Virus record (IMG/VR): IMGVR_UViG_3300037791_000006
Span: 2,530-66,529 of that record
Length of the DNA stretch: 64,000 bases
Reading direction: 5' to 3' (one strand)
Origin: a virus
The position numbers were made by a program, and so were the translations under genes. Positions within the stretch are counted from its first letter, which is position 1. Every line of letters begins with the position of its first letter. The notes beneath the pieces were generated by a model. The model was not told the origin of the DNA, did not search any database, and saw only the letters and a program-made list of their open reading frames with translations. Positions 2,580 through 51,033 of this stretch are shown piece after piece.

Positions 2580-5192
2580 TCATCCTAGCAGGTCGAGTTC
2601 TTCGTCGGGGTTCGATTTCGGCGGTGTCAGCACACGCTTTTTCGGACGCGCCGGGAACGCCCCTGCCCTCACCCAACCCCGTCTCCGCGTCCCGTCCTCG
2701 AAACGAATGGTCGCGCGCGGTTCCCACTCGGACAGATACTTCATTGCCGTCGTGATGGCGGTCAACTCGTTCGCCGGGATCGACCGGCGGTCATCCTGCC
2801 CCATGAACTCTTTCCAGATGATCGCCGTCGTGATGCGGTCGCGATAACGAGGTTCATCGTTGTCCAGTTCCTCGAACTCGGCGTCAATCGGGCTGTCCAG
2901 CCAGTCACGCAGATTGTCTGCCAGAACCTCAGCCGACGACTGGACCTTGGCACCATCTTGAAGCTGCTTGGCTTCCAGCACGGCGTCCGGGTCGGTCAAA
3001 TAGAGCGGCAGGTCACCGTGGGGGCGCTCCGCGCGCATCTCCTGGTAAATCTGCCATGCTTCCCCGAGCATCTGGGGCCATTCTTGTTCGAAGGCGTCCG
3101 TGTCGATCTCACCTTCGACCCGCACCTTGATCGGCCAGTAGCGACGGTTGCCTGTCGGGTCTCTCAGGTAGGACGTATCGTTGGTCGAACCGACAAACAG
3201 GTAGGAGCGAGGGATGCGGCTCTGGAACGTGGCGTAGGGCACGCGGTAGTCGTCACTGGTCGTGGTGATATACCGCTTCATGTGTTCCGACTCGGCCTTG
3301 TTGAAGCCGACGAGTTCCGGGAATTCCATGATCCAGCGCCCGAGGCAGCTTTCGATCATCCCCTTCTTATCGCGATAGTCGAAGTCCAGTTCCCCACCGT
3401 AGCCAACGCCCATCGCGTGAATGAAGGTCGATTTCCGCTTGCCCTGCCCGCCTTCAAGGATCGGCATGAAGTCCCATTTGCAGCCGGGTTCGAGGATACG
3501 GGCAACCGCAGCCACGGCGAACAGGATCGCCGTTTGACGATGATACGGTGTGTCCGGGCAACCCAGATAGCGGATGAACATGGTTTCCAGCCGCCCGCGC
3601 ACTCCGTCCCAAGCCTCATGGTATCCTTTCAGCTTGTCGCGCAGCGGGTGAATGGTCTTCTTGTGGCAGGCGTTGATGAGTGCGGCCTTCAAATCTCGGT
3701 CGGCCACCTTGAGCGACCAGCCGCCTTGGCGCTTCGGGGTTTCGAGCCAAAGGCGAATTGAGTGCAGATGTTCGTCCTGGAATGAGCGTCCGTTGACAGG
3801 ATCGTCCAGTTGCCAAATCGGTCCTCTGAACTGGAAATGGCCCTTCGGCCCCTCCCGTTTCGGTCTGACCACCTGCGGGGGCTTCGTGAAGACCAGCGTC
3901 TTGTTGAATTCGTTGAAGGCGACACACCCTTCGAGTCTCGGATCGTTCTCGATGAAAAGCTGGACGTTCGGGAGGGTTGATTTCGCCCCACCTTCCTCTG
4001 TCAGGTCCAACTTTGACTTCCAGCCCACGGTGTCAGGTTTCTCGTCGCTTTCCGAACTGCCGGTCAGGTCGAGATCGCCGTCATCTACCGGGACAACCTC
4101 GCCGCCAGAGGAAGGTGTGCCCAGAAGGTCTTCGAAACCATCCCCGTCATCGTCGGCGAGATCCGCGAATTCGTCGGTGTCATCGTCCACCGGAATCAGG
4201 TCAAGGTCTTCCCGGTCGAAGCGCGCGGCCTTCGCGGCCTGAATGAGCGTGGGCATCCGCACCGGGTTGGCGCGATTTGTCTTTCCGAACGACTTCCAGA
4301 CACGCTTCTGGTCCTTTTCGTCGTATTTCTCGGATTGCTGTGACCACTCGCACCAGATTTCAAATCCGCGCTTCCCTCCGCGGAACTCGTGGTGCAGGGC
4401 CATCCCGGTCTGATACCATCCGTCGCGATCATCCGCCCAATCGTCGGGCAGATCGGCCACGATGCGCAGGATTTCTTCCTCGGAAAGCCCGATGGGTTCC
4501 CCTTTAACCTCGGCGAACAGCCAGTCCGCGTCGTCCTCGAAGTCATCCGCGCCGGCCGCGCCCTGACTGGCACCCCAACTCTCTACCGTGGCCTGGTCAA
4601 CGATGCCGATCCCAAGGTCCAGATCGTCGGTGTCAATCCGGCGCTCCCAGACATAGGGCTTCTTCGTGTCAGGGTGTATCGACGGCGGCACGACAACCTG
4701 CTTGCCGGTGCCGAACAGTTCGATTTCCCAATCGTTCTTTTTGACCTCGCGCCCCTTTTGGTCGTCCCAAACCATTGTGAAGGTCTTGGATTTCGCCAGC
4801 TTCTTCGAACGGAACGGGACCGGGCAGAAGAAATAGATGTGCAGGCTCGCCCCGCCGGAACCGGAGCGAACGACGGGGAACGACATCCCATCCGGCCAGT
4901 GGTCCGCAAACCACGAGAGGACTTCGTTGAGGCACGCTTCGTCGCGCACATCGACATCAAGCAGATGCAGGTAGCCCCACGGCGTCTTGGAATATTCTCC
5001 CAAGCGCACCCCGACATTGTTGTTCCTGCGATGGGTGTCCTTGAGCGTTTCCAGGTCACGGAACGGCTTCTCGGACCAATTATCGCCAATCGGACGCTTA
5101 GATTCGGGGTGCAACCAATGGAAGGAAACGCCGTTTAGGGCGAGCGGTTCGATTTCCGCAACAATGCGGTCCAGCGGCAAAGTCATTTCCAT
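2580..5192 (-). CDS. bifunctional primase-polymerase / PriCT-2 / VirE-family helicase
   Basis: N-terminal prim-pol motifs (LDVD, HIYF, QVVVPPSIHP), PriCT-2 (WYQTGMALH...WSQQSEKY), VirE P-loop GGQGKRKST and STND...GNRR. Confidence 0.9.
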   Translation of the reverse strand: MEMTLPLDRIVAEIEPLALNGVSFHWLHPESKRPIGDNWSEKPFRDLETLKDTHRRNNNVGVRLGEYSKTPWGYLHLLDVDVRDEACLNEVLSWFADHWPDGMSFPVVRSGSGGASLHIYFFCPVPFRSKKLAKSKTFTMVWDDQKGREVKKNDWEIELFGTGKQVVVPPSIHPDTKKPYVWERRIDTDDLDLGIGIVDQATVESWGASQGAAGADDFEDDADWLFAEVKGEPIGLSEEEILRIVADLPDDWADDRDGWYQTGMALHHEFRGGKRGFEIWCEWSQQSEKYDEKDQKRVWKSFGKTNRANPVRMPTLIQAAKAARFDREDLDLIPVDDDTDEFADLADDDGDGFEDLLGTPSSGGEVVPVDDGDLDLTGSSESDEKPDTVGWKSKLDLTEEGGAKSTLPNVQLFIENDPRLEGCVAFNEFNKTLVFTKPPQVVRPKREGPKGHFQFRGPIWQLDDPVNGRSFQDEHLHSIRLWLETPKRQGGWSLKVADRDLKAALINACHKKTIHPLRDKLKGYHEAWDGVRGRLETMFIRYLGCPDTPYHRQTAILFAVAAVARILEPGCKWDFMPILEGGQGKRKSTFIHAMGVGYGGELDFDYRDKKGMIESCLGRWIMEFPELVGFNKAESEHMKRYITTTSDDYRVPYATFQSRIPRSYLFVGSTNDTSYLRDPTGNRRYWPIKVRVEGEIDTDAFEQEWPQMLGEAWQIYQEMRAERPHGDLPLYLTDPDAVLEAKQLQDGAKVQSSAEVLADNLRDWLDSPIDAEFEELDNDEPRYRDRITTAIIWKEFMGQDDRRSIPANELTAITTAMKYLSEWEPRATIRFEDGTRRRGWVRAGAFPARPKKRVLTPPKSNPDEELDLLG

Positions 5193-5199
5193 CGACCTC

Positions 5200-5532
5200 T
5201 CAGCCGATTTTGATGAACGGGCGCAGATCGTCCGCAGTCAGTGTTCCGTGCTTCTTCCCTTTGACCTTTGTGATCTTGATGATTGCGTTGATGGAACGGG
5301 TGCTGATTCCGTGCTTGAACCAACGATAGACAGTCCAGCGCGCGACCCCTGCTTTCCGCGCAAAGACGCCCGTGTCGATTCGCCCTTCCTTGGTCATGCC
5401 CGGCACATTCTCGAAGTGCGGATAAAGGAACCGGTGCAGGTCCGTATCCCAGTAATTTGCGTCGTTTTTGTTGTTCGGGGGACGCCCTGTTCGCTTCTCT
5501 CGCTGGCAAGCCTTGGCCTGTTCGGTAGTCAT
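5200..5532 (-). CDS. HTH DNA-binding protein (Cro-like)
   Basis: FARKAGVARWTVYRW HTH; GAGG RBS; divergent promoter region. Confidence 0.65.
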   Translation of the reverse strand: MTTEQAKACQREKRTGRPPNNKNDANYWDTDLHRFLYPHFENVPGMTKEGRIDTGVFARKAGVARWTVYRWFKHGISTRSINAIIKITKVKGKKHGTLTADDLRPFIKIG

Positions 5533-5585
5533 TGCTGTCACCTCTTTTGTTGAAGCGAACCTACGGCGTCTCCCAGCGCGGATCA

Positions 5586-5671
5586 ACACGTTTTCCGTGA
5601 AAGTCTACTTATTCGGGCTTGTATAATCACTTTTCGTGTGATTTATATTCATCACGTCACGGGAAACGTGA
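5586..5671. promoter_or_regulatory. divergent promoter region with three TCAC-N7-GTGA operators
   Basis: sites at 5586 (ACAC variant), 5627 and 5657; TATAAT at 5622. Confidence 0.7.
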
Positions 5672-5702: not shown

Positions 5703-6176
5703 ATGGCACTTGAAGACAAAATCCAGGAACTCATCGACTCCGTGAACCGCAATACGGCAGTCACCGAGTCGCTCATGAACCTGCGCAAAGACGCAATTGA
5801 AGCGGTCAAAGGCGAAGCCGCCCCCGCCACCAAGAAGGCTGGCTCGAAGCCGCAGGAGAAGCCCGCCGCCAAGGAAGACAAGCCGCAGATTTCGGAAACC
5901 CCGGAAGATCGCCAGGACACTTCGGCCTACGACGGCCTCGGCGAGAAGATCAAGGAATACGTCGGTTTTGACGACGACACTGAAAAGCGCAAGGCGCGTC
6001 AGGCCAACGTGAAGAAAATCTTCGGTCACGAGAAGATTCAGGCGAAGAAGCACACCGAAGTGCCCGAAGCCATGATCCCGGTCGTCATCAAGAACATCGA
6101 CAAGCTGATCGAGAAAGCGCGCGAAGAAGCCGCTGCCGCCGCAGACTCCGGCGATGACGACGACCTGATGGGCTAA
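5703..6176 (+). CDS. hypothetical replication-module protein with acidic DDDDLMG tail
   Basis: first gene of the DUF2800/DUF2815 module; GAGG RBS. Confidence 0.8.
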   Translation: MALEDKIQELIDSVNRNTAVTESLMNLRKDAIEAVKGEAAPATKKAGSKPQEKPAAKEDKPQISETPEDRQDTSAYDGLGEKIKEYVGFDDDTEKRKARQANVKKIFGHEKIQAKKHTEVPEAMIPVVIKNIDKLIEKAREEAAAAADSGDDDDLMG

Positions 6177-6481: not shown

Positions 6482-6556
6482 CTTGGTGCGGCACAACAAG
6501 GTAGCTCCTTCCCCCTTGTTGTGCCCACTACCACCGCAGATTCACACGAGGCGAAC

Positions 6557-7771
6557 ATGAGCGCACATGCAGAAATGGGACCGTCCGGCGCCGACCGCTG
6601 GATGACCTGCACGTCCTCTGTCCCCCTGATTGCGCGCCTTCGCGAACAAGGGAAACTCGTGGTGGAAGGGGATGAGGACGGCGACGAATACAGCGCCGAG
6701 GGCACCGCTGTTCACGACATCCGCGCCCGCTGCCTTGAGGACGGAACAGACCCCTACGATTATGTCGGGGAGACGATCCGTGAAGGACGGCACGCCTTCG
6801 AATTTACCGAGGAAATGGCCGAGAGACTGTTGCCCGGCGTGGACTGGCTGCGCGAGCGCCTGGACGAAATCGAAGTGGAACTCCGCGTCCGGCTTGACCC
6901 GTGGATGCCCAACCAGTTCGGCACCCTCGACAGCGGGGGTGTGTTCGACGGCACCCTCGTGATCTGCGATTACAAGAACGGCATCGGCGAGCCTGTTGAC
7001 GCCGTGGACAACCGGCAATTGCGCCTCTACGCCCTTGGCTACTGGCACCGGATCGGGCGGCCCCAAGTGAAGCGCATCCTGATCGTGATCGACCAGCCCC
7101 GTGCCGGTGGAATGAAGTTCTGGGAAATCACGATCAACGAACTCTTGGAGTTTGGGCGCGAGGCGGCTGATGCCTACTTGGCGATTAAGACCGGTAAAAC
7201 GGAATTCAAGCCCAGCCGGGAAGCATGTCGCTGGTGCCCGGCGAAAGAGACTGCCGAAGGGTGCCCTGCCTATACACGCTGGATGTTGGACATCTTCCTC
7301 GGGGCCTTTGACAAGGTGATGCTGTTGCTCGGCGAGGTAAAACTACCAGACCCAGACCTAATCACCCCGGAAAAACGCTGGATCGTCGTGCAGAACAGAG
7401 ATCTCGCCCGAAAGTGGTTGGAGAAGCTGTATGCCGACAGCCTGAAAGCCGGTCAGGAGGGCAACCCTGATCCCGGCAGCAAGATCGTTCTCGGGCGCCG
7501 TGGTGACCGCTTCCTGCGCGACGAGAAAACGGGGGAGAAAATCCTTGTCGAAGCCCTGGGCCTCGATGCTTACAAGCCCCCGCAACTGATCGGTATTACC
7601 GACATTGAAAAAGCCCTGAAACCCACGCGCCGCAAGGAAGGGCACCCGGAAGCGTGGGAGAAAATTCAGGAACTTATAGACCGGGGCGAAGGTAAGCCTA
7701 CCGTCGCCCCGGTGGATGATCCACGCCCTGCCATCATGGACTTGGACGCGGAATTCGAAGACCTCGATTAA
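6557..7771 (+). CDS. DUF2800 Cas4-like PD-(D/E)XK exonuclease
   Basis: HAEMGPSGADRWMTC, FGTLD, DYKNG, QLRLYALG, CRWCP motifs. Confidence 0.85.
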   Translation: MSAHAEMGPSGADRWMTCTSSVPLIARLREQGKLVVEGDEDGDEYSAEGTAVHDIRARCLEDGTDPYDYVGETIREGRHAFEFTEEMAERLLPGVDWLRERLDEIEVELRVRLDPWMPNQFGTLDSGGVFDGTLVICDYKNGIGEPVDAVDNRQLRLYALGYWHRIGRPQVKRILIVIDQPRAGGMKFWEITINELLEFGREAADAYLAIKTGKTEFKPSREACRWCPAKETAEGCPAYTRWMLDIFLGAFDKVMLLLGEVKLPDPDLITPEKRWIVVQNRDLARKWLEKLYADSLKAGQEGNPDPGSKIVLGRRGDRFLRDEKTGEKILVEALGLDAYKPPQLIGITDIEKALKPTRRKEGHPEAWEKIQELIDRGEGKPTVAPVDDPRPAIMDLDAEFEDLD

Positions 7772-8089: not shown

Positions 8090-8794
8090 ATGGGCCGCGT
8101 AATGGATAAAGACCCCACGGGTCGCACGATCATCATCACAGGCGGGCGCCTGTCCTTCGGCGAAAGCCTCAAGGAAAAGCAGAAGCCGAAGAAGGCCGAC
8201 GATGATGCGAAGGCAGTGCATAGCTGCAACATCATCCTCGAATCCGATCACAAGGACTTCAAGAGCAACCAGGCTGCGGTGATCGCCGCCTGTAAGGCCG
8301 CAGCGCGCGAGTTCAAGAAGCCGGAAACCTGGTGGAAAGACCTGTTTGACGACGATCCGAAGCAGATTTGTTTCCGCCAGGGTCGCCGGTTCAAGAACAG
8401 CGATACGGGGGAAATCTACGCGGGTTACGAGGGCAACCTTGTTATCGTTGGCAAAGGCCCCCGTGGCGGCGAAAATCGCCCCAAACTCAAGGATCGCCGC
8501 AAGCGCGATGTCGAGGAAAAGGACATCCTGGACGTGTGCTATAACGGCACCTACGGCGACTTCATCGTGTCGTTCTACGCGACCGACAAGGGCGGCACCC
8601 AACGGATCACCTGTTCCGTTGAAGCGATCCGTTCCCACGAAGAAGGCGAGCGCATGGGCGGCGGCGGCATCACTGTTGACGACGACGACTTTGATGATCT
8701 TCCCGACGATGACAGCTTCGGCGACGACGAGTTCGGCGGCGAGCGCGGCGGTGGCTCCGTTGTCGATGACGCCGACGATGACCTTCTGGGTTGA
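8090..8794 (+). CDS. DUF2815 phage ssDNA-binding protein
   Basis: GRLSF...YNGTYG OB-fold pattern, long acidic tail, position next to DUF2800. Confidence 0.8.
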   Translation: MGRVMDKDPTGRTIIITGGRLSFGESLKEKQKPKKADDDAKAVHSCNIILESDHKDFKSNQAAVIAACKAAAREFKKPETWWKDLFDDDPKQICFRQGRRFKNSDTGEIYAGYEGNLVIVGKGPRGGENRPKLKDRRKRDVEEKDILDVCYNGTYGDFIVSFYATDKGGTQRITCSVEAIRSHEEGERMGGGGITVDDDDFDDLPDDDSFGDDEFGGERGGGSVVDDADDDLLG

Positions 8795-8856: not shown

Positions 8857-9462
8857 ATGAACCATCTGATGATTGACCTCGAAACCTTGGGCACGTCGCC
8901 CGGCGCACCGGTTCTCTCGATTGGTGCGTGCTACTTCGATCCGGTCACCGGAGAGATTGGCGACAAGTTCCACCAGCGCATCGACGCCGCAGATGCTCTC
9001 CGCTACGCGCGCATGTCCGGTGACACGTTCAAATGGTGGCTACGACAGTCGGACGATGCTCGTCGCAAGGTGGTGCAAAATGCCGGAAGCGCACGTGAGG
9101 CGTTCGAAGGGTTCGACGCCTTCTGCCGAAAGCATGGGACTCGAAATCTGCGCCCGTGGGGCAACGGGGCGTCGTTCGACATCACGATCCTCGACGTTTC
9201 CTATCAGCGGATCATGGATCGGGAAGCCCCGTGGGCGTTCTGGAATGTCCGCGATGTGCGAACCATCAAGGAACTCGGCGAAGCGGCAGGGCACCACTGG
9301 TCGGAGAAGCTGGAAGGGACAGCGCACGACGCACTAGACGACGCGGTATTCCAGGCCCGCTATGTCAGCTTCTACTGGCAAGGGCTTCTGGGGATTGGAG
9401 GCTCGGAGACGGCGACCGGCGAAGCGTCACAATCCGACGACGACATCGACCTGTTGGGGTGA
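8857..9462 (+). CDS. DEDDh 3'-5' exonuclease (Rv2179c/exonuclease VIII-like)
   Basis: HLMIDLETLG, WGNGASFD, RDVRT, HDALDDA. Confidence 0.85.
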   Translation: MNHLMIDLETLGTSPGAPVLSIGACYFDPVTGEIGDKFHQRIDAADALRYARMSGDTFKWWLRQSDDARRKVVQNAGSAREAFEGFDAFCRKHGTRNLRPWGNGASFDITILDVSYQRIMDREAPWAFWNVRDVRTIKELGEAAGHHWSEKLEGTAHDALDDAVFQARYVSFYWQGLLGIGGSETATGEASQSDDDIDLLG

Positions 9463-9466: not shown

Positions 9467-9811
9467 ATGAAATTCCGCGACATCCCAGTAACGTCCATGG
9501 CCGACGCTGACACCGTGGAACGCACTCTCGCACAGGATCGCGAGGCGAGCGAACAAGATGCCGTGATGCGATGGCTGGCCGAAGGGCACCGGCCCACGGT
9601 CGTGGAGCGGGGTCGCAGTGCCCTCTTTGACGAGTTCGGCTTGCCGATGGAGAAGGCCAGCCACTCCATCACTGAGAGGACCGCGCGCCGCGTTCGAATT
9701 GCCCGCAAGTTGCAGGGCTTCGGGGTCACCCCGAAAGGTATCGCACAAGCCCTCGGGATGCCCATCACAAGCTATCGCTCGATGATGAACCGTTGGGGGA
9801 CTGGTTCCTAA
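9467..9811 (+). CDS. hypothetical HTH protein
   Basis: GVTPKGIAQALGMPITSY C-terminal HTH. Confidence 0.55.
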   Translation: MKFRDIPVTSMADADTVERTLAQDREASEQDAVMRWLAEGHRPTVVERGRSALFDEFGLPMEKASHSITERTARRVRIARKLQGFGVTPKGIAQALGMPITSYRSMMNRWGTGS

Positions 9812-11775
9812 TGCGACGTAAGCCTGACACCTTGTTCCTCGACATTGAGGTCTACTGGGACTTCTTCTACCTCGGGATGAAGCGTCTGAGCGACGGGGTG
9901 CGCCATGGCATTGAAATGTCTACACGCAACCCATTCGGGGCAGACAGGCGCGAAACCGTTCGTAATTTCCTCCTGCAATATCAGACCGTAGGCTTCAACA
10001 GCCTCGGCTTCGACCTTCCGTTGATATGGCTTTGGATCGACGGAGCGGACAACGACACGCTCAAGCGGGCCTCAGATCGAATTATCCAAGGACGTGTTCG
10101 CTGGTGGGAAGCTGAGGACGCTCTCGACATCCGCATCCCTTGGAAGATCAAAGATCAACACATCGACCTGATTGAACCGCAGCCGAACCCTTTTGCTAGC
10201 CTGAAAACACTCAACGGACGGCTCCACGGGAAGCAGTTGCAAGACCTGCCGTTCGACCCCGCACTGGTCCCAAGTCCGCAGGAAATGGACATCCTCGCGA
10301 ACTACTGCCTGCACAGCGACCTGGACGCCACGCACAACCTTTGGGATGCGATGGGCGAAGCCATTGAACTTCGCCGCAACGTGTCCGCGCAGATCGACAA
10401 GAACGTAATGTCGAAGTCCGACACGCAGATGGGCTTGGCGATCATCAAGAAGCGTGTCGAGGATAAACTCGGGCGCCGGATCAAAAAGCCGGAACCAAAA
10501 CCTGGTCAAACCTTCCGTTACAGCCCTCCCGACTTCATCGAATTCAAGACCCCGCAGATGCGGGACATCCTCGCGCACATCAAACAGCACGACTTCATCG
10601 TCGGCGAGAACGGCAAGGTTGACCTGCCGAAGTGGCTCAAAGACGCACACATCCAACTCGGCTATTCGACCTACAGCATGGGTATCGGGGGCCTACACTC
10701 GACGGAGTCCAATAGGGCAGTTCGGTCTAGTTCGACCCACGCTTTGTGCGACTTCGACGTTGCCTCCTACTACCCGGCAATCATCCTGAACGCCGGTTTG
10801 TATCCAGAAGCGACGGGACCGGCGTTCATTGATGTCTATGCTGACATCCGCCGCGAACGCATTGCGGCCAAGAAGGTCAAGGACAAGGTGACCGACAAGT
10901 CGCTGAAAATTGCGCTGAACGGCACCTTCGGCTCGCTCGGCTCCCGCTACGCATTCGTCTATGCCCCTCACCTTATGATCCACGTGACCCTTACGGGGCA
11001 GCTCTGCCTGTTGATGCTCATCGAGTGGGCCGAGGAAATGGGTATCGACGTGGTGAGCGGGAACACCGACGGCGTGGTCATGCGTTTCGACCGAGACCTG
11101 TGGGACGGACTCGACGGAGACCGCCCTCGCCCGTCGCCTGTTGCCGATCTGATCGAACGCTGGGAAAGCGTGACCGGGTTCACCCTTGAGGGGACCGAAT
11201 ACGAGAGCATCTTCAACCAGTCCGTGAACAGCTATTTCGCGATCAAAACGGACGGTTCTCACAAGCGCAAAGGCCCCCTCGGGAACCCGTGGTCACCGGA
11301 TGATTTCGACCCGCGTTCCCAGATGATGAAGAACCCGCAGATGACCATCTGTTCCGATGCGGCCCTCGCAAAGATCAAGCACGGGACACCCCTGGAAGAA
11401 ACGATCCGCTCCTGCCGCGACATCAAACAGTTCGTGACGGTCATCAAAGCGGACGGCGGTGCGACCTGGAACGACGAATACCTCGGGAAAGTGGTCCGCT
11501 ACTACTGGTCCGTTGACGGGCAGCCCATCTTCAAAGCGAAGGCCACGAAGACCGGTGCCTTTCCGAAGGTTCCGAAAACGGAAGGTGCCCGAGAGTGTAT
11601 GCGCCTGCCGGACGAGTTCCCCGACGACATCGACTATGCGCGCTACGTGGCCGAGGCCGACGCGATCCTCCGAGACCTTGGATATTACGGGGAAATCCAG
11701 CCTGACACCAAGAAGGTCCGCACCAACAAGCAAAACCGCAGAGCAGTCGATGCCGCTTGGGCGGTGGCACCATGA
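9811..11775 (+). CDS. family B-type DNA polymerase with 3'-5' exonuclease
   Basis: DIE and FNSLGFD exonuclease motifs; DVASYYP, KIALNGTFG, NTDG polymerase motifs. Confidence 0.85.
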   Translation: MRRKPDTLFLDIEVYWDFFYLGMKRLSDGVRHGIEMSTRNPFGADRRETVRNFLLQYQTVGFNSLGFDLPLIWLWIDGADNDTLKRASDRIIQGRVRWWEAEDALDIRIPWKIKDQHIDLIEPQPNPFASLKTLNGRLHGKQLQDLPFDPALVPSPQEMDILANYCLHSDLDATHNLWDAMGEAIELRRNVSAQIDKNVMSKSDTQMGLAIIKKRVEDKLGRRIKKPEPKPGQTFRYSPPDFIEFKTPQMRDILAHIKQHDFIVGENGKVDLPKWLKDAHIQLGYSTYSMGIGGLHSTESNRAVRSSSTHALCDFDVASYYPAIILNAGLYPEATGPAFIDVYADIRRERIAAKKVKDKVTDKSLKIALNGTFGSLGSRYAFVYAPHLMIHVTLTGQLCLLMLIEWAEEMGIDVVSGNTDGVVMRFDRDLWDGLDGDRPRPSPVADLIERWESVTGFTLEGTEYESIFNQSVNSYFAIKTDGSHKRKGPLGNPWSPDDFDPRSQMMKNPQMTICSDAALAKIKHGTPLEETIRSCRDIKQFVTVIKADGGATWNDEYLGKVVRYYWSVDGQPIFKAKATKTGAFPKVPKTEGARECMRLPDEFPDDIDYARYVAEADAILRDLGYYGEIQPDTKKVRTNKQNRRAVDAAWAVAP

Positions 11776-13158: not shown

Positions 13159-13477
13159 TTTTGACCTTGGGGGATCGAACCGAGAGTCGTCAGTCGAAGA
13201 TGCGGTCGTAGCCTGGGCTGAGAACAACGGCTGGTTCGCTCGCTTCATGGCCTATCGCGGCCGGCGCGGATGCCGGGACGTGGACTTCTACGGCTATTCG
13301 TCAATCGTGATGATGGAATTCAAGAAGACCGGCGGCGGCGAACTCTCGGGAAACCAGATCAACGAACGCGCTCGGATGAGCAAAGCAGGGCTGATCGTCC
13401 ACGTTGTCGATTCCGCGGAACAGGGCATTTCGATCCTACGCGGCCAAATGGAAACCTTCGATCTATTGGATATGTGA
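13151..13477 (+). CDS. VRR-NUC domain nuclease
   Basis: ESSVE, GCRD, MEFK, LSGNQ, VHVVDS. Confidence 0.75.
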   Translation: MADFDLGGSNRESSVEDAVVAWAENNGWFARFMAYRGRRGCRDVDFYGYSSIVMMEFKKTGGGELSGNQINERARMSKAGLIVHVVDSAEQGISILRGQMETFDLLDM

Positions 13478-19082: not shown

Positions 19083-19101
19083 TCACCCGCAGGAGACGAA
19101 A

Positions 19102-20343
19102 ATGCCGCTGAACGCAATGCAGGTGAAGGCCGCCAAGGCCGACGCTAAGGACAAATTGCTGACCGATGGGGATGGCCTCTATCTGAATGTCAGGGTGAGC
19201 GGGACGAAGCAGTGGCAGTTCCGATACCGCTTGGCGGGCAAGCAGAAGAAGTCGATCCTCGGGCATTACCCGGAAGTCAGTTTGAAGGCTGCGCGGGATA
19301 TGCGGGACGCCATGCGCCGCGACCTCTCGCGAGGGGAAGACCCCGCGAGGACAGACCTCTCGGAATATAGCGCAGTGACCTTTGGCAAGATGGCGACCGA
19401 CTGGCATGAGAAGCAGTTGAACCGCTGGTCACCAGGTCATGCCCGGCGCGTCTGGTCGCGCATCGAGGGTGACCTTCTGCCGACCCTCGGTGATCGCCCT
19501 GTAGCGGCCATCACGCGAAAGGACGTGCTGACAGCACTGCGCGCCGTAGAGGCTCGTGGCGCAATCGACATGGCGAAGCGCGTCGGCCAGTATGCGACTC
19601 AGATTTTTGAATTCGCCCTCAGCGAAGAACACGTCGAGTTCAATCCCGCAGTGAACCTCTCGAAGAGTCTGTCGGCCAACCCACCGACAAAACATCACCC
19701 CCGTCTCACCGATGCCCAGCTTCCGGGCTTTTTCTCCAAACTGGAAACATACGATAGCAACCTGACCCGCACCGGCTTGAAACTCATCCTGCACACTTTC
19801 GTTCGCACCAAGGAACTTCTCGGGGTAACGGAAGCGGAGATTGATTTCGAAGAAATGTTGTGGCGCATCCCCGGCGAGCGGATGAAGCGGCGCCTTGACC
19901 ACATGGTTCCCCTGACGCCCACCAGTGCAGCGTTGTTCCGCCATCTGATTGACCTGAATCCCTCTGGCGGGCGCCTGTTGCCGATTAGTTCGAACACAAT
20001 GATCTTCGCGATGTATCGCATGGGCTACCACACTAAGGCGACAGTTCACGGCTTCCGATCCACCGCTTCCACCGTCCTCAACGAGTCCGGCTTGTGGCGG
20101 TCGGACGCAATTGAACGCCAACTAGCCCACGTGCCGGACGACCAAGTGCGAGCGGCATACAACGCCGCCCTCTACCTCGCGGAGCGCCGGGAAATGATGT
20201 CTTGGTGGTCAGACTTTCTGAACGAGAAAGAGGCTGAGGGGAGGCCAGTGACGAAAGCTGCCTCGTCGGTCGATGATTTCGAAGACCTCCTGGGCGAGGA
20301 CGACGACATCGACCTGCTCGCAGAGGTCGGCATCGAGTGCTGA
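19102..20343 (+). CDS. int: P4-like tyrosine integrase
   Basis: DGDGLYL arm-binding domain, LGHYPEVSLKAAR, R, HGFR, QLAH, AY catalytic residues. Confidence 0.95.
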   Translation: MPLNAMQVKAAKADAKDKLLTDGDGLYLNVRVSGTKQWQFRYRLAGKQKKSILGHYPEVSLKAARDMRDAMRRDLSRGEDPARTDLSEYSAVTFGKMATDWHEKQLNRWSPGHARRVWSRIEGDLLPTLGDRPVAAITRKDVLTALRAVEARGAIDMAKRVGQYATQIFEFALSEEHVEFNPAVNLSKSLSANPPTKHHPRLTDAQLPGFFSKLETYDSNLTRTGLKLILHTFVRTKELLGVTEAEIDFEEMLWRIPGERMKRRLDHMVPLTPTSAALFRHLIDLNPSGGRLLPISSNTMIFAMYRMGYHTKATVHGFRSTASTVLNESGLWRSDAIERQLAHVPDDQVRAAYNAALYLAERREMMSWWSDFLNEKEAEGRPVTKAASSVDDFEDLLGEDDDIDLLAEVGIEC

Positions 20344-20436: not shown

Positions 20437-20637
20437 ATGCGATACTTACGTCTGTCCGAAGTGATTGCACGGACTTCCCTTTCCAGAAGCGAGATATACC
20501 GGAGGATCGCTGCGGGGAAATTCCCACGGCAAAAGCGCCTGTCACCTCGGGTCTCGGTGTGGCTTGACACAGAGATCGACGCATGGATGGGCGGCGACGG
20601 AGAATTGGATCAACTGCTAGGGGAACTGATCGGATGA
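20437..20637 (+). CDS. AlpA-family excisionase/regulator
   Basis: LRLSEVIARTSLSRSEIYRRIAAGKFP. Confidence 0.9.
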   Translation: MRYLRLSEVIARTSLSRSEIYRRIAAGKFPRQKRLSPRVSVWLDTEIDAWMGGDGELDQLLGELIG

Positions 20638-21350
20638 GTGACGAATTTGAGGACTTGTTGGGCGGCGAACCCGCCGATGAATCCGAGCCTGCCCTGCGCA
20701 CACGCTCCAACCGCGGGAAGGATAAGCGGAAACTTGATCCAAGCACATTTGAGGGTCGAACGCTTACCGATGACATGCCGATGACATCTGACCTGTTGCG
20801 TCCGGTGGGCATTTCCCTCTTGGCCGAGATAATGGGCAAGCAGCCGGTGCAAATCCGAAAGCGCCTCTCCCGGTGCCCCGTCGTCGGCACACACAAGCAC
20901 GCCGGTAGAGATCAACCGCTCTACGACTTCGTGACCGCAATGGCCTACCTGATCGAACCGAAAGGGAACATCGAGGAATGGTTCGCCAATAAGAACGCTG
21001 CCACGCTCCCACCATATGTGAACAAGATGTTCTGGGACTCGGCCCACCAGCGCAATCGCGTCATGCTGTCGTCCAACGATCTATGGCACAGCGATGACGT
21101 CTTGGCCCTTCTCGGTAGGATCGGCCTGACGATCAAAGAGGAAACGCTCCTGTGGCTCGAAAATATGCCAGGGCGAGACGAGCTTTCAGACAAACAGTTC
21201 AAGCACCTTTCTGACGAAGTGTCGAGGTTGCAGCACACGATCCGTGAGCGAATGATGGAACTGCCGACACTCAGCGAAACTACAGCGATGGCAGAGACCA
21301 TTCGTGACGAATTGAGCGAGGCCGGTGTGATGCCGGATGCAGACGTATGA
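20634..21350 (+). CDS. terminase small subunit (DUF1441-like)
   Basis: immediately upstream of TerL; LPP..KMFWDS...DLW motif. Confidence 0.75.
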   Translation: MSDEFEDLLGGEPADESEPALRTRSNRGKDKRKLDPSTFEGRTLTDDMPMTSDLLRPVGISLLAEIMGKQPVQIRKRLSRCPVVGTHKHAGRDQPLYDFVTAMAYLIEPKGNIEEWFANKNAATLPPYVNKMFWDSAHQRNRVMLSSNDLWHSDDVLALLGRIGLTIKEETLLWLENMPGRDELSDKQFKHLSDEVSRLQHTIRERMMELPTLSETTAMAETIRDELSEAGVMPDADV

Positions 21351-23624: not shown

Positions 23625-23846
23625 ATGCCGACAACTTCCGAATTGCTGACCGAGGCCCGCAAAGCCTACCACGAGCTGATGATCGGCAATCAGGCCGTCG
23701 AAGTTCGCGACAGCAACGGCGAGTCTGTGCGCTTCACCCGCGCCAACGCAGAACGCCTGCGTGGATACATCAAAGAACTGGAAGTCCAGCTTGCCCAAGA
23801 AAACGGCACTGCCGAGCGCCGCCGCCCGATGAGGCTGCAATTCTGA
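23625..23846 (+). CDS. gpW-like head-tail joining protein
   Basis: LTEARKAYHELMIG...LRGYIKELE; between TerL and portal. Confidence 0.85.
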   Translation: MPTTSELLTEARKAYHELMIGNQAVEVRDSNGESVRFTRANAERLRGYIKELEVQLAQENGTAERRRPMRLQF

Positions 23847-46336: not shown

Positions 46337-47514
46337 GACGTGACCATGCGCTTGATGACACCCTGTATGAATTCGCATCTGAACGCCAGAAAGAATACTT
46401 GGACGCAATCAAGTTGCACGGTGGAGCCGAAGCTGCCGCGCGCAACCTTGGCCTGAGTTGCGGTGGGACGATCCGCAAGTCCATAAGTCGCCTCAAAGCG
46501 AAGGCTGCCATGCGCGGGCACAGCCCGGATCACGACATGACGCGCACCGTCCCAGAGCCATTCGTTGTGCGCGGTGTTTCAACCTACTATGACAAGGACG
46601 GCAAAGCGGCCGGCCAGTGGGTGAAGTCACGCCTGGACGATCAACGCTATTTCGAATTGATCCGTGCGACCGCAGAAGCCCTCTCCGAGGACATACGCCC
46701 TACCGCACCCGTCGAATTGCCCGAAAGCCTCAGCTTCGCTCGCAACCTTCTCACCACCTATATCCTGACGGACGTTCACCTGGGGATGCTGGCATGGCAC
46801 GAGGAAGGCGGTGCGAACTGGAACCTCAAAATCGCAGAAAAGACGATCGAGGGCTGTTTCGACCTCATGGTCAAACTGTCACCGGACAGCGAGACTGCTA
46901 TAATCTCGCAGTTGGGGGACTGGTTCCACTTCGACGGCATTCTGCCAGTGACTCCCACGAGCCGCCATGTCCTTGACGCTGACACGCGCTTTGCGAAGGT
47001 GATACGGGCTGGTTTCAGGTTGTTGCGCCGCCTTATTGGAAGGGCGCTTGAGAAGCATCAGAAAGTCGTGGTGTTGATGGCGGAGGGCAATCACGACGAA
47101 TCGTCCTCCCAATGGCTACAGGTGATGCTTGACACGCTCTACGAGAACGAACCTCGCGTAGAGGTCATCGTTTCAGCGAAGCCTTACTACGCCTACGAAT
47201 TCGACCAAACGGCGCTCTTTTTCCATCATGGTCACAAGAAGCGGGGTCAAAATCTCGCACTCCTGCTTGCCGCTGAGTTCCGTGAGATCTGGGGGCGCAC
47301 CAAGAAGGCTTACGGGCACACCGGTCACCTGCACCATGAGCTCGAACAAGCGTTCCCCGGCATCAAGATGATCCAGCACCCCACCTTGTCGGCTCGGGAT
47401 GCACACGCCTCCCGCGAAGGGTTCATGAGTGAAAGACAGGCGTCCGTTATCACCTACTCGCGAAAGTTCGGGGAAATCGGTCGCCATGTCGTAACACCGG
47501 ATATGCTAGGATAA
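46333..47514 (+). CDS. HTH + calcineurin-like metallophosphoesterase
   Basis: DVHLG, GD, GNHD, HGH, GHLH. Confidence 0.8.
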   Translation: MRRDHALDDTLYEFASERQKEYLDAIKLHGGAEAAARNLGLSCGGTIRKSISRLKAKAAMRGHSPDHDMTRTVPEPFVVRGVSTYYDKDGKAAGQWVKSRLDDQRYFELIRATAEALSEDIRPTAPVELPESLSFARNLLTTYILTDVHLGMLAWHEEGGANWNLKIAEKTIEGCFDLMVKLSPDSETAIISQLGDWFHFDGILPVTPTSRHVLDADTRFAKVIRAGFRLLRRLIGRALEKHQKVVVLMAEGNHDESSSQWLQVMLDTLYENEPRVEVIVSAKPYYAYEFDQTALFFHHGHKKRGQNLALLLAAEFREIWGRTKKAYGHTGHLHHELEQAFPGIKMIQHPTLSARDAHASREGFMSERQASVITYSRKFGEIGRHVVTPDMLG

Positions 47515-47782: not shown

Positions 47783-49099
47783 TCAGCCTAGGAGTTCGGC
47801 CAACATTTCTTCGATGCCCCCGCTCCCACTGGGGGTTCCTCCAAGCAAATCTTCGAATTCAATCTCCGATATACTTTGGATATTTTCTACTATCCTATGG
47901 GTAGATTCGCAATCGAATGTTTCACATTTTGTGTGCTGTTTTTCACTTATATTTGCATCGAAGCGTTGTTCGAGAAAAGTGAAATAATCGGCGTCTGACT
48001 CCATGAGAATGCAGTCCACACCTTCGCGTATAGCTGCCACCCCAGTTGTCCCGGAACCGGCGAACGGGTCCAAAACCACGCCACCAGGAGGCGTAACGTG
48101 GCGAACAAGGTGCTGCATCAAAGAAATTGGCTTGACCGTCGGGTGTTTCGAGCCATCTCTATCCTGTTTCGCAGCCTTGACGTTCCACAACGCTGCGGGA
48201 ACGTCAATCAGATCGCCATGTTCCGAGAGCATGGCGGCTTCCCAGTCACAGTCGTGTGAGAAGCTATTGAAATATCGCGCCGCGCCATCAGGGAACAGGG
48301 CCTCTGCGGCCTCGCTCCCGTCGTGAAGAAGGTTGGCCGGATACCGACCGAGCGCGTTGGTTCGCGCGACACTGGCTCTCTGGGCCGCGTGCATGGCATC
48401 GGTGTCGCGCCCACTGAGGCCGTATTCCCCGCCTTGTCGCCCGCGCTTGTGCGGGTCACTCTGAGGCGTGTGGATGATCTCCCCGTCGGAAAGAGGAACG
48501 CGGCAACCGTCGATATTGACAGCCCCCACCCCGTGTTTCACGAGATTGACCCCACCGCTTTTCTCGGACATGGGTTTCTGTGCCAGATAGATAGGCTCAA
48601 GCGCGGGCTTCTGTGCCTGCGTGCTGTATTTCCACCCTTCCCACCTGTCTCCGTCCCCACCGGCGTTGTTGACCTCGCGCTGGGCGTCCCGCGTCTTTGG
48701 GAAACCCTGCCCGTAAATCCACCCGTGCATCGGGTGCATGATAAATCCGGCCTGCTCCATAGCAACGGCTTGCCAGTGCCCAGTCCGAGATCCACTGAAT
48801 GCGAAGCAATAGCCGCCCGGCAACAGGATGTCGTGAATCAGGCGCCAGAACTCGGGATCACGCTCGATCTGGGTTCCGTCCCAAGTCTGCCCCATGAAGC
48901 CGGTAGACAACCGAGAAAACGAACCGTCATTTCCGTCCGATTTGGCTGCCGCCGCCCCTTTCTTTCCGAACCGCTTGACCATGCTTGTCAGGCCGTAGGG
49001 AGGGTCCGTCACAACACTGTGGACGCGCACCCCTTGGTCGATCAAGCGGCGAAGCGAGTCTCGGTTGTCACCTTGAAATAGCTGGATGGATTGGCTCAT
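47783..49099 (-). CDS. DNA N6-adenine/N4-cytosine methyltransferase, beta class
   Basis: TDPPY, HPTVKP, LDPFAGSGTT. Confidence 0.9.
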   Translation of the reverse strand: MSQSIQLFQGDNRDSLRRLIDQGVRVHSVVTDPPYGLTSMVKRFGKKGAAAAKSDGNDGSFSRLSTGFMGQTWDGTQIERDPEFWRLIHDILLPGGYCFAFSGSRTGHWQAVAMEQAGFIMHPMHGWIYGQGFPKTRDAQREVNNAGGDGDRWEGWKYSTQAQKPALEPIYLAQKPMSEKSGGVNLVKHGVGAVNIDGCRVPLSDGEIIHTPQSDPHKRGRQGGEYGLSGRDTDAMHAAQRASVARTNALGRYPANLLHDGSEAAEALFPDGAARYFNSFSHDCDWEAAMLSEHGDLIDVPAALWNVKAAKQDRDGSKHPTVKPISLMQHLVRHVTPPGGVVLDPFAGSGTTGVAAIREGVDCILMESDADYFTFLEQRFDANISEKQHTKCETFDCESTHRIVENIQSISEIEFEDLLGGTPSGSGGIEEMLAELLG

Positions 49100-49944
49100 G
49101 ACCCTGCGACCTCGCGCAGCTTGCGGTCCTGGATGAAACCGCTGAGGTTACCGTGAAGCCCAGGGCGTTCCCACCCTTCAAGGCCGCCGCTCATCGGGCA
49201 ACGAACGCGCCTGTCAGACGTGGCCTGATGCTCGAACGGGGACCAATGGTGCTGCCCGATGAGCCGTCGCGCCAACTCCAAGTCACGGGAAATGACCGGC
49301 TCGCTCTGATCGTGGTTCAGGTATGATGCGCGAGCGCACCGCGCCCCGCTCACCTTACGCAAGATGTCGGTATGGAAATTCAGCCGTTCCTCGACACCGA
49401 TGAGCGGTAGATGCCAATCACCGTGGGCGAGCCGGATCGGCACAGAAGCGTTGAACGCCTCGCGAACCGCAACTGCGAACTCCCGTATGGTCGGGTCGGC
49501 GTCGTCGTGAATGCGAAGATCGAAGAAGGACTGCCAGTCCGTGCCGCTGATAATCTCCACGGTGTGAGTCCAAGGTTCGATGATCCGATTTGCCACTTGC
49601 TTGTGGGCACCTGCTTTCGAGGCGACCCAGGCAAATCCTGCCGCCGCATAACCGGCTGCAAACCACGCGCCACGCGCAGTTGCCCGTCGCCAACCAAGAA
49701 GCGGCCCACCGGCCTGCATACCGGGCCGATTTGCACCGAACTCAACAGGCTCCGCCATGTCCGAGACCGTGTTGCGCAGCATACGGGACACGGGGATCGC
49801 GCGAGAAGAGCTGACCGAATGCGAGAGAGGGCGATGCCGCAAGACCTCGGAATGGATGATCCGGGGGTAGACCGCGCGAATGGTGGTCATTCTGTCCCCG
49901 TATTGGTTGATGGAGTCGGCCAGCACCGTCGCGGAAATCGTCAT
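49096..49944 (-). CDS. thyX: flavin-dependent thymidylate synthase (ThyX-like)
   Basis: RHRPLSHSVSSSR motif, KQVANR, HWSPFEH. Confidence 0.75.
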   Translation of the reverse strand: MTISATVLADSINQYGDRMTTIRAVYPRIIHSEVLRHRPLSHSVSSSRAIPVSRMLRNTVSDMAEPVEFGANRPGMQAGGPLLGWRRATARGAWFAAGYAAAGFAWVASKAGAHKQVANRIIEPWTHTVEIISGTDWQSFFDLRIHDDADPTIREFAVAVREAFNASVPIRLAHGDWHLPLIGVEERLNFHTDILRKVSGARCARASYLNHDQSEPVISRDLELARRLIGQHHWSPFEHQATSDRRVRCPMSGGLEGWERPGLHGNLSGFIQDRKLREVAGS

Positions 49945-50195
49945 CCCAACAAGTCCTCAAAATCGTCGTTTGCGGTGGTTTTTTCGCGGGGCACCTGCGG
50001 TTGCCCTGCATCCTGATCCATCAAGTCCCGCAGAGCCGCTTCGGCGGTGTCTCCTGCCCCATGATGCGGGCTGAGGTTTCGCGTCCTCGATGTGCGTAGC
50101 GCCGTGAAGTTCCCGAAAACCGAGTGCTTCCCGACGATCACTGAGTCCAGGTCGTGTTCATCCATGTAGGTTTCGAGTTCGGAAAATGCAGTCAT
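49941..50195 (-). CDS. small protein ending DDFEDLLG
   Basis: ATGA-coupled ORF. Confidence 0.7.
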   Translation of the reverse strand: MTAFSELETYMDEHDLDSVIVGKHSVFGNFTALRTSRTRNLSPHHGAGDTAEAALRDLMDQDAGQPQVPREKTTANDDFEDLLG

Positions 50196-50434
50196 CCCAG
50201 CAACCCCCCTAGGTCGTCATCTGCTTCGAGCGGTGCTTCGGGATCGTCGTCCACAAGCCCGGCATTGATGAGCGCCTGACGGAGAGTTCTCGCAGGCTTC
50301 GCCTCGTCCCAATGCAGCTTCACCGCGCCATCCTTTGTAGCCACTCGCACATCGCCATTCGGCAAGAAGCGGATGGCGAGCCTGTCGCCCCGCATTCTCA
50401 CCCGAGACGTCAATTCATCGAAAGGATCGCTCAT
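50192..50434 (-). CDS. small protein ending DDDLGGLLG
   Basis: ATGA-coupled ORF. Confidence 0.7.
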   Translation of the reverse strand: MSDPFDELTSRVRMRGDRLAIRFLPNGDVRVATKDGAVKLHWDEAKPARTLRQALINAGLVDDDPEAPLEADDDLGGLLG

Positions 50435-50694
50435 CCCAAGAGGCCCCCGGTAAGGTCGTAGTCGTCATCAAGGGACTGGGGTTCAGGCGCCCTGTCGGAC
50501 CAAGGCTTGAACGATTGCAATGCGCAATCCAAAGCCCGGTCAAATGTCTCTTGCTCGGTCCCGCAACACCAGCCACCAGCTTTTCTGCGCAGATTGACCT
50601 TCCACCCCTCGCGCGACCCGTCAGGTGGGAACACCGTCATTGCGGTGGCCCCTATCTCCGTCAGTGTGCCGCCTATGTCGCGAGGGGTGCCCAT
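50431..50694 (-). CDS. small protein ending DDDYDLTGGLLG
   Basis: ATGA-coupled ORF. Confidence 0.7.
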   Translation of the reverse strand: MGTPRDIGGTLTEIGATAMTVFPPDGSREGWKVNLRRKAGGWCCGTEQETFDRALDCALQSFKPWSDRAPEPQSLDDDYDLTGGLLG

Positions 50695-50697
50695 AGT

Positions 50698-51033
50698 TCA
50701 CCCGAGCAAGTCGTCAAAACCGTCATCGTCACCGGCGTCGGTTTCGTCCAAGTCGCCCATCAGGTCATCCGCATCATCACAGGTTGCCTGACTGGCGTCA
50801 TCGGACCCTTCGGCACCGGTAAGCACACCGTCCCCCTCAGCCATGAGGATACCGTCATCCGTCAGGATGAGGTTGGATTCGACGTTCTTGTGATCCCCGA
50901 ACGCTTCGAGAGTGTCCGAGACAAATGCCGTCTTCTGGACCGGGATGAGGACGACTTCCCCTGCGAGAGTCGCTTGGACGCGGATCGTCCCCTTGTGTCC
51001 GCGGATCGCGGATCGCAGTTCACCGAGTTTCAT
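50698..51033 (-). CDS. small acidic protein ending DDGFDDLLG
   Basis: AGGAG RBS. Confidence 0.7.
   Translation of the reverse strand: MKLGELRSAIRGHKGTIRVQATLAGEVVLIPVQKTAFVSDTLEAFGDHKNVESNLILTDDGILMAEGDGVLTGAEGSDDASQATCDDADDLMGDLDETDAGDDDGFDDLLG

Follow-up and report, generated by a model that had tools for sequence, protein, structure and literature searches.

The stretch of DNA analysed here, which we call the window, comprises 64,000 nucleotides of a single 66,529-base viral contig (IMG/VR record IMGVR_UViG_3300037791_000006, bases 2530 to 66529; all positions given below are window coordinates), and it carries a phage in which about one-sixth of the predicted proteins, nearly all of them DNA-handling enzymes, bear the same short peptide tag: a run of acidic residues capped by a small hydrophobic tip, most often L-L-G, and usually placed at the extreme C-terminus. 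The tag is the tip of the phage's own protein for binding single-stranded DNA (SSB), and the same proteins bear other tips in related phages. We consider it somewhat better than an even chance (a probability of about 0.55) that this peptide is a lineage-specific docking handle of the kind represented by the tails of phage T7 gp2.5 and gp4, extended here to proteins of recombination, methylation and packaging. That the tails bind, that they have a common reader and that this reader is encoded by the phage is what we infer from the patterns described below.

The phage is recognizable as such by its lambda-type large terminase (with gpA ATPase and nuclease domains), lambda-family portal, S49 head protease, tyrosine integrase and AlpA-type regulator, and its replication module consists of a primase-polymerase/VapE helicase, a Cas4-like nuclease of the DUF2800 family, an SSB of the Enc34 ORF6 type, an Rv2179c-like exonuclease, a DNA polymerase and a SNF2-type helicase. 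Counts over the proteome are based on 75 open reading frames (ORFs), called over the full 66,529 bases with our own codon-usage scorer trained on the longest ORFs, plus the AlpA gene, which was added by hand; three of the resulting 76 genes lie to the left of the window start. Twelve of the 76 proteins end in [LM][LMVI]G, eight of them in LLG, which is the commonest terminal tripeptide, and glycine is enriched 2.9-fold as the last residue. The rate at which the pattern occurs inside proteins (35 times in 19,242 residues) predicts 0.14 such ends (Poisson P 1e-19), and 1000 shuffles gave a mean of 0.138 and never more than two, so that the observation behind the original prediction, which had made an excess over shuffled proteomes one of its tests, is borne out by a wide margin. 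When occurrences of [DE][LM][LMVI]G are counted in six-frame translation, a stop follows directly after 10 of 29, as compared with a stop fraction of 0.023 (P 5.6e-10). The run upstream of the tip is equally distinctive, with 3.83 acidic residues at positions -11 to -4 in the tagged proteins (n = 12) versus 1.31 in the others (n = 64).

The DNA that encodes the tip is far from uniform. The twelve terminal triplets of L-L-G type are written CTG CTA GGA, CTG ATG GGC, CTT CTG GGT, CTG TTG GGG, CTG ATC GGA, CTG GTA GGC, ATG CTA GGA, CTC CTA GGC, TTG TTG GGA, TTG CTG GGA, CTC TTG GGA and TTG CTC GGG, both TGA and TAA serve as stops, hairpins lie 3' of the primase and SSB genes, and the five internal or N-terminal copies of FEDLLG type likewise differ in their codons. 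Among the 19 in-frame occurrences of [DE][LM][LMF]G, 13 correspond to nine terminal tags together with the copies in the small terminase (TerS), the portal, the primase linker (residue 355) and the integrase extension (residue 440), and a further two belong to tails with two tags, where they form the inner copy (residue 417 of the N6/N4 DNA methylase and residue 90 of the small ORF product s111). Four others lie inside domains (residue 158 of the primase, residue 283 of the integrase, a protein left of the window and a 118-residue protein encoded at 61495-61851), and an additional one is found at residue 57 of a 988-residue tail protein. The variation among synonymous codons and the existence of N-terminal and internal copies show that it is the peptide, not the DNA, which is under selection, as the original prediction had suggested from codons, stops and hairpins.

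The tags also lie where a detachable handle might be expected, beyond the folded domains. Pfam domains span residues 2-174 of 201 in the exonuclease, 26-374 of 438 in the methylase, 19-69 of 84 in AlpA and 14-208 of 234 in the SSB, and they reach residue 401 of 458 in the integrase, which agrees with the earlier statement that the tag is appended after the catalytic core. AlphaFold2 models point the same way: confidence (predicted local distance difference test, pLDDT) falls to 50-70 over the SSB tail and over the tag of a helical protein that we call orf157, and the cores are well folded (above 90 for the SSB core), which shows the tags to sit on disordered linkers. In its model, orf157 has a long N-terminal helix, a disordered linker rich in lysine, alanine and proline, and a three-helix bundle; a Foldseek search with this model gave no match with E <= 0.001 in PDB or BFVD, and its best rows were uncharacterized syntenic phage proteins. 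Homologues of orf157 are present in the loci of 37 relatives, in most of which the gene is the first of the rightward replication operon.

Of all the carriers, the SSB (gene 8090-8794, +; tip DADDDLLG at 8768..8791) is the one that can be regarded as the prototype. It belongs to the family of Enc34 ORF6 and T7 gp2.5 (PF10991, E 2e-14, with profile hits to the DUF2815 structures 4klk and 4jg2), and an SSB-family protein is present in each of the 42 relatives' loci that we tabulated, with an acidic-hydrophobic tail in all but one (L079); unlike the SSB, the other tagged proteins vary between lineages. The ends of 109 SSB homologues include LLG in 22, FDF in 16 and LDF in 6, and of their final residues 42 are G, 22 F, 20 L and 11 I. 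The likeness to the C-terminal tail of bacterial SSB that had been drawn at the outset is therefore apt in kind, the tag being an SSB tip, although the SSB in question is of the T7 gp2.5/Enc34 type and not of the bacterial type. Upstream of the tip, SSB residues 199-210 (8684-8722) form a near-invariant acidic-aromatic block among 50 homologues (D199, F201, D202, D208 and F210), and residues 198-201 form a short helix in the AlphaFold2 prediction.

Among cultured phages, the closest relatives are RcCWillis and the RcD cluster (Casjensviridae), which infect Rhodobacter capsulatus and show about 67% DNA identity over the head genes. No protein of RcCWillis or RcMrWorf (the Rc phages in what follows) has the G-type end (0/96 and 0/98, versus 12/76 here), and eight in each (8/96 and 8/98, versus 0/76 here) end in [LMA][LMVI][VI], with LLV as the commonest terminal tripeptide in RcCWillis. 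It is the same proteins that carry these other tips. Thus IDLLG of the exonuclease corresponds to VDLLV and SELLI in the Rc phages, AELLG of the methylase to ETLLV and DELLV (in the context TDLSDLF...LLV), the ..LLG.. of the integrase extension to ..TLLV and TELLV (TDLSDLL..TLLV), LLGELIG of AlpA to LGLLV, DDLLG of s111 to DDLLI and DDLFV, DDLMG of orf157 to SDALV, and DDLVG of orf129, the protein encoded directly after the major capsid gene, to DKSLV. Positional counterparts of orf129 end in DKSLV, ENALV, DDMVG, EDMGL, DESMI, EEDGLI and GAEGL. Even the internal and N-terminal copies have their equivalent, as TDLSDL[FL] stands on TerS, portal, integrase and methylase of the Rc phages as the counterpart of FEDLLG in the window.

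Further afield, uncultured relatives were found by way of the polymerase, the terminase and an alignment of SSBs; their loci (denoted L followed by a number) are mostly partial. The tips recorded there include DDLGI (L003), LLG or ILG (L011), L[VI]G (L014-16), D[LM][IV] (L023, L026, L032 and the Stutzerimonas prophage L049), EDGLI (L028 and L031), GGL (L033 and L035), G[LI]I (L034), [IL]GL (L038), GIG (L064) and DFG (L072). Burkholderia phage AH2 has [DEG][DEG]L at the ends of its orf157 homologue, Cas4-like nuclease, SSB, TerS and the product of the gene after the capsid gene, as well as on RusA, ParB and gp24. Proteins beyond those tagged in the window are drawn in elsewhere: RusA and ParB in AH2, the polymerase in L023, L026, L032 and L049, a SNF2 helicase in L028 and L034, and GapR in the Rc phages.

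For counts across lineages the acidic-hydrophobic tail was defined without regard to its tip. Such tails are found on 14 of 76 proteins in the window and on 6 of 20 to 8 of 21 per locus in relatives, versus 1/51, 2/52, 2/41, 1/22, 2/30 and 2/30 in control phages. The controls throughout were shuffles, internal rates and six-frame counts, the R. capsulatus phages RcOceanus, RcHartney and RcSimone-Hastad, and four phages or contigs whose polymerase or replication module is related (STP-SP5, L005, L006 and L008). Within a phage, the last residues of two such tails are identical in a fraction of 0.432 (285 pairs from 89 tails in 16 lineages), a value reached in none of 5000 permutations (mean 0.187, maximum 0.305), and for the last two residues the identity is 0.228 versus 0.059 when permuted. 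We also compared families defined by hidden Markov models, over all relatives' loci, with the SSB of the same locus, scoring identical positions among the last four residues. The match was strongest for orf157 (77/120; permuted 33.4, maximum 55; 0/10000 reach it), followed by the exonuclease (25/40; permuted 15.0; 9/10000), the Cas4-like nuclease (42/140; permuted 31.5; 53/10000) and the primase (23/116 in 29 loci; permuted 15.2; 94/10000), which lacks such a tail in most loci. The polymerase, which has no acidic tail and serves as a negative control, shares its last residue with the SSB in 1 of 27 loci (permuted 1.9). On a quick tree of the SSB core (35 rows, tails excluded) the SSB tip underwent at least 12 changes and the orf157 tip 19.

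How these observations might fit together can be put as follows. The tag would be a linear motif for docking, made up of a disordered acidic linker and, as its cap, the small hydrophobic tip D-L-L-G-COOH. Proteins at work on phage DNA would have acquired it, some of them in two copies: the primase-helicase, two nucleases, integrase, AlpA and methylase, and also the small terminase, the portal, the product of the gene after the capsid gene and five small proteins. The tails would plug into the same acceptor site, or into a few sites, on the phage DNA-transaction machinery, and replicating phage DNA would be the place where the tagged proteins gather and are passed on. Tails and acceptor, having to fit each other, would drift together and give each lineage a tip of its own (LLG, LLV, LGI, GLI, GL and others). 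Of the original prediction, the selection on the peptide and the position of the tags beyond catalytic cores are supported, and a shared reader would be the simplest account of the lineage-specific co-variation; the one hub, the factory and the control of stability envisaged there are conjectural. It is tempting to go further and to see in the tag a private address code for a single phage receptor that gathers replication, recombination, methylation and packaging of an ordinary 66-kb siphophage into one factory, where joint drift of code and receptor would render the machineries of related phages in the same cell incompatible and so raise a barrier between lineages, and a second code, W-x-x-A-x-COOH (described below), would address a second receptor, but this fuller version is doubtful.

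Several observations weigh against a docking handle with a shared reader. The set of carriers differs between lineages, and concordance of the tips is imperfect: the SSBs of the Rc phages end in SLFDI or SLLDF, not in LLV, and in L056-L065 the SSB ends in FDF or LDF and orf157 in LEL or LLD. The tail of the Cas4-like nuclease keeps the form F-[DE]-D-L-D across lineages with differing tips, a pattern that would sit better with an additional acceptor of higher conservation than with a single hub. The AlphaFold2 monomer of the SSB leaves the tail undocked on its own core, at low confidence (pLDDT 50-70). Finally, the permutation tests ignore relatedness, and phylogenetically independent pairs on supported branches number one to three per binary trait, such that no sign test is significant (median p 0.5-1) in what is an underpowered comparison; the direction of these pairs is consistent, with about 7 pointing the same way versus about 0.5 the other when summed over five overlapping traits. 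We regard the co-variation as strong descriptively and by permutation, and as still short of proof once phylogeny is controlled for.

As a principle, the sharing of a docking peptide is already in print for T7, where it concerns two proteins, and for T4, where several proteins meet one clamp. For T7, one report places a DTDF peptide that mimics the gp4 tail on the polymerase gp5, at a site that was used to position the gp2.5 tail (PMC12339929), and another has the gp2.5 tail binding gp5 and the helicase and being needed to stimulate gp6 (PMC4124056). Suppressors in gene 5 are also reported for T7 gp2.5. The resemblance to our phage lies in a gp2.5-type SSB with a disordered acidic tail and a hydrophobic cap, and in a primase-helicase with a tail of the same kind (DEELDLLG, beside DADDDLLG of the SSB). 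In T7 one acceptor site serves two tails (PMC12339929), and in this SSB family the tail also reaches the SSB's own groove (PMC5686142). The differences are those of extent and of chemistry: two tagged proteins in T7 versus about 15 here, with recombination, methylation and packaging included; Phe at the tip in T7 versus L-L-G; a polymerase of the T7 family versus a family-B-like one; and tips that are lineage-specific and change together across the proteome, of which we found no description.

The gp45 clamp motif of T4 is the closest precedent for many tails meeting one hub. In PMC6212786, gp43 ends in EKASLDFLFG, a ligase loop reads EPEGLDFLFD and gp33 is listed with them, all binding the gp45 clamp, and the likeness is that of a short hydrophobic and acidic peptide, at the C-terminus or in a loop, on several unrelated proteins with one hub. 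Here, however, no clamp family was recognized in Pfam and PHROG scans of 40 of the 76 proteins, the tag is dominated by its acidic run and equals the SSB's own tip, and the polymerase does not carry it. With respect to bacterial SSB, one tail meets many acceptors there, whereas many proteins carry the tail here, the SSB is of family PF10991 and the tip is unlike the ...DDEIPF of the control phage RcHartney. The earlier remark that no description was known stands for the proteome-wide, co-varying form, of which we found no description in the open texts (these leave out most subscription journals and supplements), and falls for the principle itself. The genomics paper on the Rc phages (PMC8601537) contains no occurrence of 'C-terminal', 'C-terminus', 'carboxy' or 'motif'. 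What we did not find in print is the spread over about one-sixth of the proteome, a membership that takes in integrase, excisionase, methylases, terminase and portal, and the lineage-specific tips that change together.

An informative comparison is offered by the phages of a single host species. Other R. capsulatus phages have no ends of the LLV/LLG class at all (RcOceanus 0/51, RcHartney 0/52, RcSimone-Hastad 0/52), and RcSimone-Hastad, which shares the primase/Cas4/polymerase type of module and has a different structural module, instead carries DPLA at the end of three proteins, among them its primase-polymerase and the product of the ORF adjoining the Cas4-like gene. Tips thus vary, or are missing altogether, among the phages of one host species, which means that the tag is not set by the host; this argues for a phage-borne reader and against a degron, a clamp and partners of the host SSB. 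Suppose nonetheless that the reader were a host protein, such as the beta sliding clamp, or pockets whose normal ligand is the tip of the host SSB, and that tips differ because hosts differ. Clamp-binding peptides are typically terminal and are found on polymerases, methylases, nucleases and enzymes of mobile elements, and a scan of 40 window proteins turned up no clamp gene. A host reader would also have a model in the T4 motifs of gp43, ligase and gp33, all of which bind gp45 (PMC6212786). Yet the tag is unlike the ...DDEIPF tip, does not fit by eye the pentapeptide or hexapeptide consensus for the bacterial beta clamp, and is lacking on the polymerase, the likeliest clamp binder; and tips as short as GL or DL in AH2 would offer too little hydrophobic surface for a clamp pocket. 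Together with the different tips within one host species, this makes a host reader rather improbable. Degradation is hardly a better prospect. If a host or phage protease or adaptor read the acidic-hydrophobic end and so limited the lifetime of DNA-acting proteins, it would suit a tag that mostly lies at the extreme C-terminus with a free carboxylate, that is borne by the integrase, the excisionase and small early-type proteins, and that occurs in a phage encoding an S49 protease; integrase- and excisionase-type proteins are under proteolytic control in other temperate phages. But phages of one host species carry LLV, DPLA or none, the N-terminal and internal copies mean that a free C-terminus is not required, the tag is found on the abundant and long-needed SSB and primase-helicase and on the assembly proteins portal and TerS, and the S49 protease is, by family and gene position, a head maturation enzyme of lambda gpC type, all of which leaves a turnover signal unlikely.

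It might also be that there is no dedicated hub, and that each tail works chiefly in cis, imitating DNA and so covering the DNA-binding surface of its own protein, as has been shown for SSB tails; the tails would then have come to look alike through competition for, or displacement from, the SSB groove. Nearly all tagged proteins bind DNA, the SSB has its acidic-hydrophobic tail in 41 of 42 loci, and the Enc34 ORF6 SSB binds double-stranded DNA once its tail is removed and its crystal has the acidic C-terminus in the groove of a neighbouring SSB (PMC5686142). We think masking in cis improbable all the same, as unrelated folds give no reason for a single lineage-specific tip, AlphaFold2 put no SSB tail on its own core, and the portal and the small ORF products have no known DNA-binding fold. 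The tag on the portal, TerS and the product of the gene after the capsid gene calls to mind a capsid-targeting signal that would load proteins into proheads for co-injection with the DNA, and C-terminal capsid-targeting peptides are known in other phages. TerS acts outside the capsid, however, the loading of SSB, primase-helicase and several nucleases would be unprecedented, and RcSimone-Hastad, with its different structural module, still tags replication proteins; we consider this explanation very improbable. Scarcely credible is an artefact at the level of DNA or translation, be it a conserved signal at gene ends, the ribosome-binding site of the following gene or a recently copied DNA cassette. 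GGA-TGA or GGG-TGA does stand at the end of several tagged genes, and in three the stop and the following start overlap as ATGA, but the twelve ends use at least ten codon triplets and two stops, some are followed by a hairpin and not by a coupled gene, copies exist at N-termini and internally, and relatives behave alike with other residues.

Returning to a docking handle read by a phage protein, we infer the following order of candidate readers: the family-B polymerase, the primase-helicase, the DNA-binding groove of the SSB and, for the packaging proteins, the large terminase. The polymerase (9793..11775, +) is family-B-like by weak hits to Pol alpha and Pol II, has a conserved W-x-x-A-x end and carries no tag either here or in the majority of lineages, which by analogy would suit a polymerase that takes up tails, as in T7. 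Its candidacy as the sole reader is weakened because the polymerase itself ends in ..DHLI in L023, L026, L032 and L049, where the tag is D[LM][IV], although this end comes without an acidic run. The SSB groove is a second candidate suggested by the Enc34 ORF6 crystal. Two other proteins were considered and ruled out as universal readers. One is a fusion of two BRCT domains with a dATP/dGTP diphosphohydrolase (51456-52721, -); its orthologues in the Rc phages (226 and 220 residues) align only to residues 212-355 (RcCWillis) and 218-321 (RcMrWorf), so that the BRCT pair is missing in these tagged phages and is an addition specific to the lineage of the window. The other is a HerA_C/DUF87 ATPase of the terminal early block (62252-63463, +; Pfam E 1e-90), which is kept in RcCWillis, RcMrWorf and L053, annotated there only as AAA-ATPase, and has no tblastn match in tagged AH2.

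Every tail listed in the original prediction is present where it was said to be, including the weaker variants. At the left of the window, the primase-polymerase/VapE-type helicase (gene 2580-5192; Pfam Prim-Pol, PriCT_2 and VapE-like) ends in DEELDLLG (2583..2606, -), followed by a terminator-like hairpin, and has a second copy, GFEDLLG, at residues 352-358 (4119..4139, -) in the linker between its primase and helicase domains, where Pfam coverage ends at 320 and restarts at 527. The rightward replication genes follow with orf157 (gene 5703-6176), whose C-terminal DDDDLMG (6153..6173, +) goes along with the SSB tip from one relative to the next, the Cas4-like DUF2800 nuclease (gene 6521-7771), with the variant tail EFEDLD (7751..7768, +) in the F-[DE]-D-L-D form common to many lineages, and, beyond the SSB, the Rv2179c-like 3'-5' exonuclease (gene 8857-9462), which ends in DDDIDLLG (9436..9459, +). 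The end FDLLDM of a small nuclease (gene 13061-13477; 13457..13474, +) is a weak variant. The tyrosine integrase (gene 18967-20343) has the copies DDFEDLLG and EDDDIDLL (20272..20319, +) in a 57-residue extension after its catalytic domain, the tag DDFEDLLGEDDDIDLL standing 25 residues before the protein end, and AlpA, an excisionase or regulator (gene 20383-20637), ends in ELDQLLGELIG (20602..20634, +).

The longest-ORF starts of TerS and portal proved to be wrong; with the starts corrected to ATG 20634 and ATG 23846, the motifs that had been placed at the N-termini of both are at true N-termini. TerS begins MSDEFEDLLGG (20634..20666, +; motif at residues 7-10), its start overlapping the AlpA stop, and its relatives have the motif at either the N- or the C-terminus. 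The lambda-gpB-type portal begins MGMTGDPLVDELLG (23846..23887, +; motif at residues 11-14), and a comparable N-terminal motif is found in at least ten lineages. The portal start overlaps the stop of an unlisted gpW-like gene, the product of which ends in ..RRRPMRLQF. Directly after the major capsid gene, orf129 (gene 28860-29249) ends in EDDDLVG (29226..29246, +); this is the position of lambda FI, and the AH2 record labels the genes neighbouring its post-capsid gene W, B, C, D and E.

The leftward block carries the remaining tags. The N6/N4 DNA methylase (gene 47783-49099) has, after its methylase domain, both FEDLLGG (residues 415-421) and a terminal EMLAELLG (47786..47857, -), which makes it doubly tagged like the primase-helicase and the integrase. 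Four small ORFs follow: s84 (49941-50195), ending in DDFEDLLG (49944..49967, -); s80 (50192-50434), ending in DDDLGGLLG (50195..50221, -); s87 (50431-50694), which has a low coding score and ends in DDDYDLTGGLLG, that is, with a terminal DLTGGLLG (50434..50469, -); and s111 (50698-51033), with two copies at its end, DDADDLMG and the terminal GFDDLLG (50701..50778, -). For these four and for orf157, neither Pfam nor PHROG gave a match. A doubtful member of the twelve is the SbcD/Mre11-like phosphoesterase (gene 46333-47514), since its end TPDMLG (47494..47511, +) lacks an acidic run and has a homologous counterpart, TPEM.., at the ends of the orthologues; it is probably not a tag. By block, C-terminal tags number 5 of 21 proteins between 2.5 and 25.5 kb (replication to packaging), 6 of 16 in the leftward nucleotide-metabolism block (46.3-56.2 kb), 1 of 20 among virion and lysis proteins and 0 of 19 in the terminal early block, in keeping with the earlier remark that the tag is absent from the early region and the tail proteins. 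The 988-residue tail protein encoded at 39082-42048 has ..ADLFGGDD.. at about residue 57 (39250-39273), which resembles an internal tag and is the sole case in the tail module.

If the docking handle is real, a large group of phages would organize its DNA transactions by a short, evolvable peptide code and not by dedicated interaction domains; the group includes Casjensviridae-like and other phages that have the primase/DUF2800 nuclease/gp2.5-type SSB/family-B polymerase module and whose hosts are alpha-, beta- and gammaproteobacteria. The code would help in finding functions for the many small tagged ORFs, explain how methylases, integrases and terminases find replicating phage DNA, and provide a simple system for the co-evolution of a linear motif and its reader, for which the culturable R. 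capsulatus phages carry the LLV form. The tails might even serve as portable tags that recruit cargo to phage DNA.

A near-identity search with 18.5 kb of the window against a phage collection gave no match, and a tRNA scan found none. An alphaproteobacterial host is suggested because the phage encodes a GapR-like DNA-binding protein (51054-51374, -; Pfam E 1e-32). This protein ends in ..AISDY and is untagged; in the Rc phages the orthologues go under the annotation 'DsbA-like protein' and carry the LLV tag at their end.

There is, finally, a second hydrophobic C-terminal motif in the window, W-[AIL]-x-[TV]-A-[PV] followed by a stop (11755-11775, 12567-12587, 14026-14046 and 18178-18198), which ends the polymerase, a PAPS-reductase-like protein, an HNH nuclease and a C5-methylase; all four stops overlap a possible ATG as ATGA. 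The polymerase of relatives nearly always ends in W-x-x-[AL]-A-[AV], and the C5-methylase or a neighbouring ORF sometimes ends alike (L014-16, L029 and L036). One possibility is that this W-x-x-A-x motif forms another docking code, which might serve a processivity factor of the family-B-like polymerase. In RcHartney (L041), a gene annotated 'replicative clamp' (25628-26857 of that phage, -) ends in ...DPDDEIPF, of which ...DDEIPF is the canonical tip of bacterial SSB.

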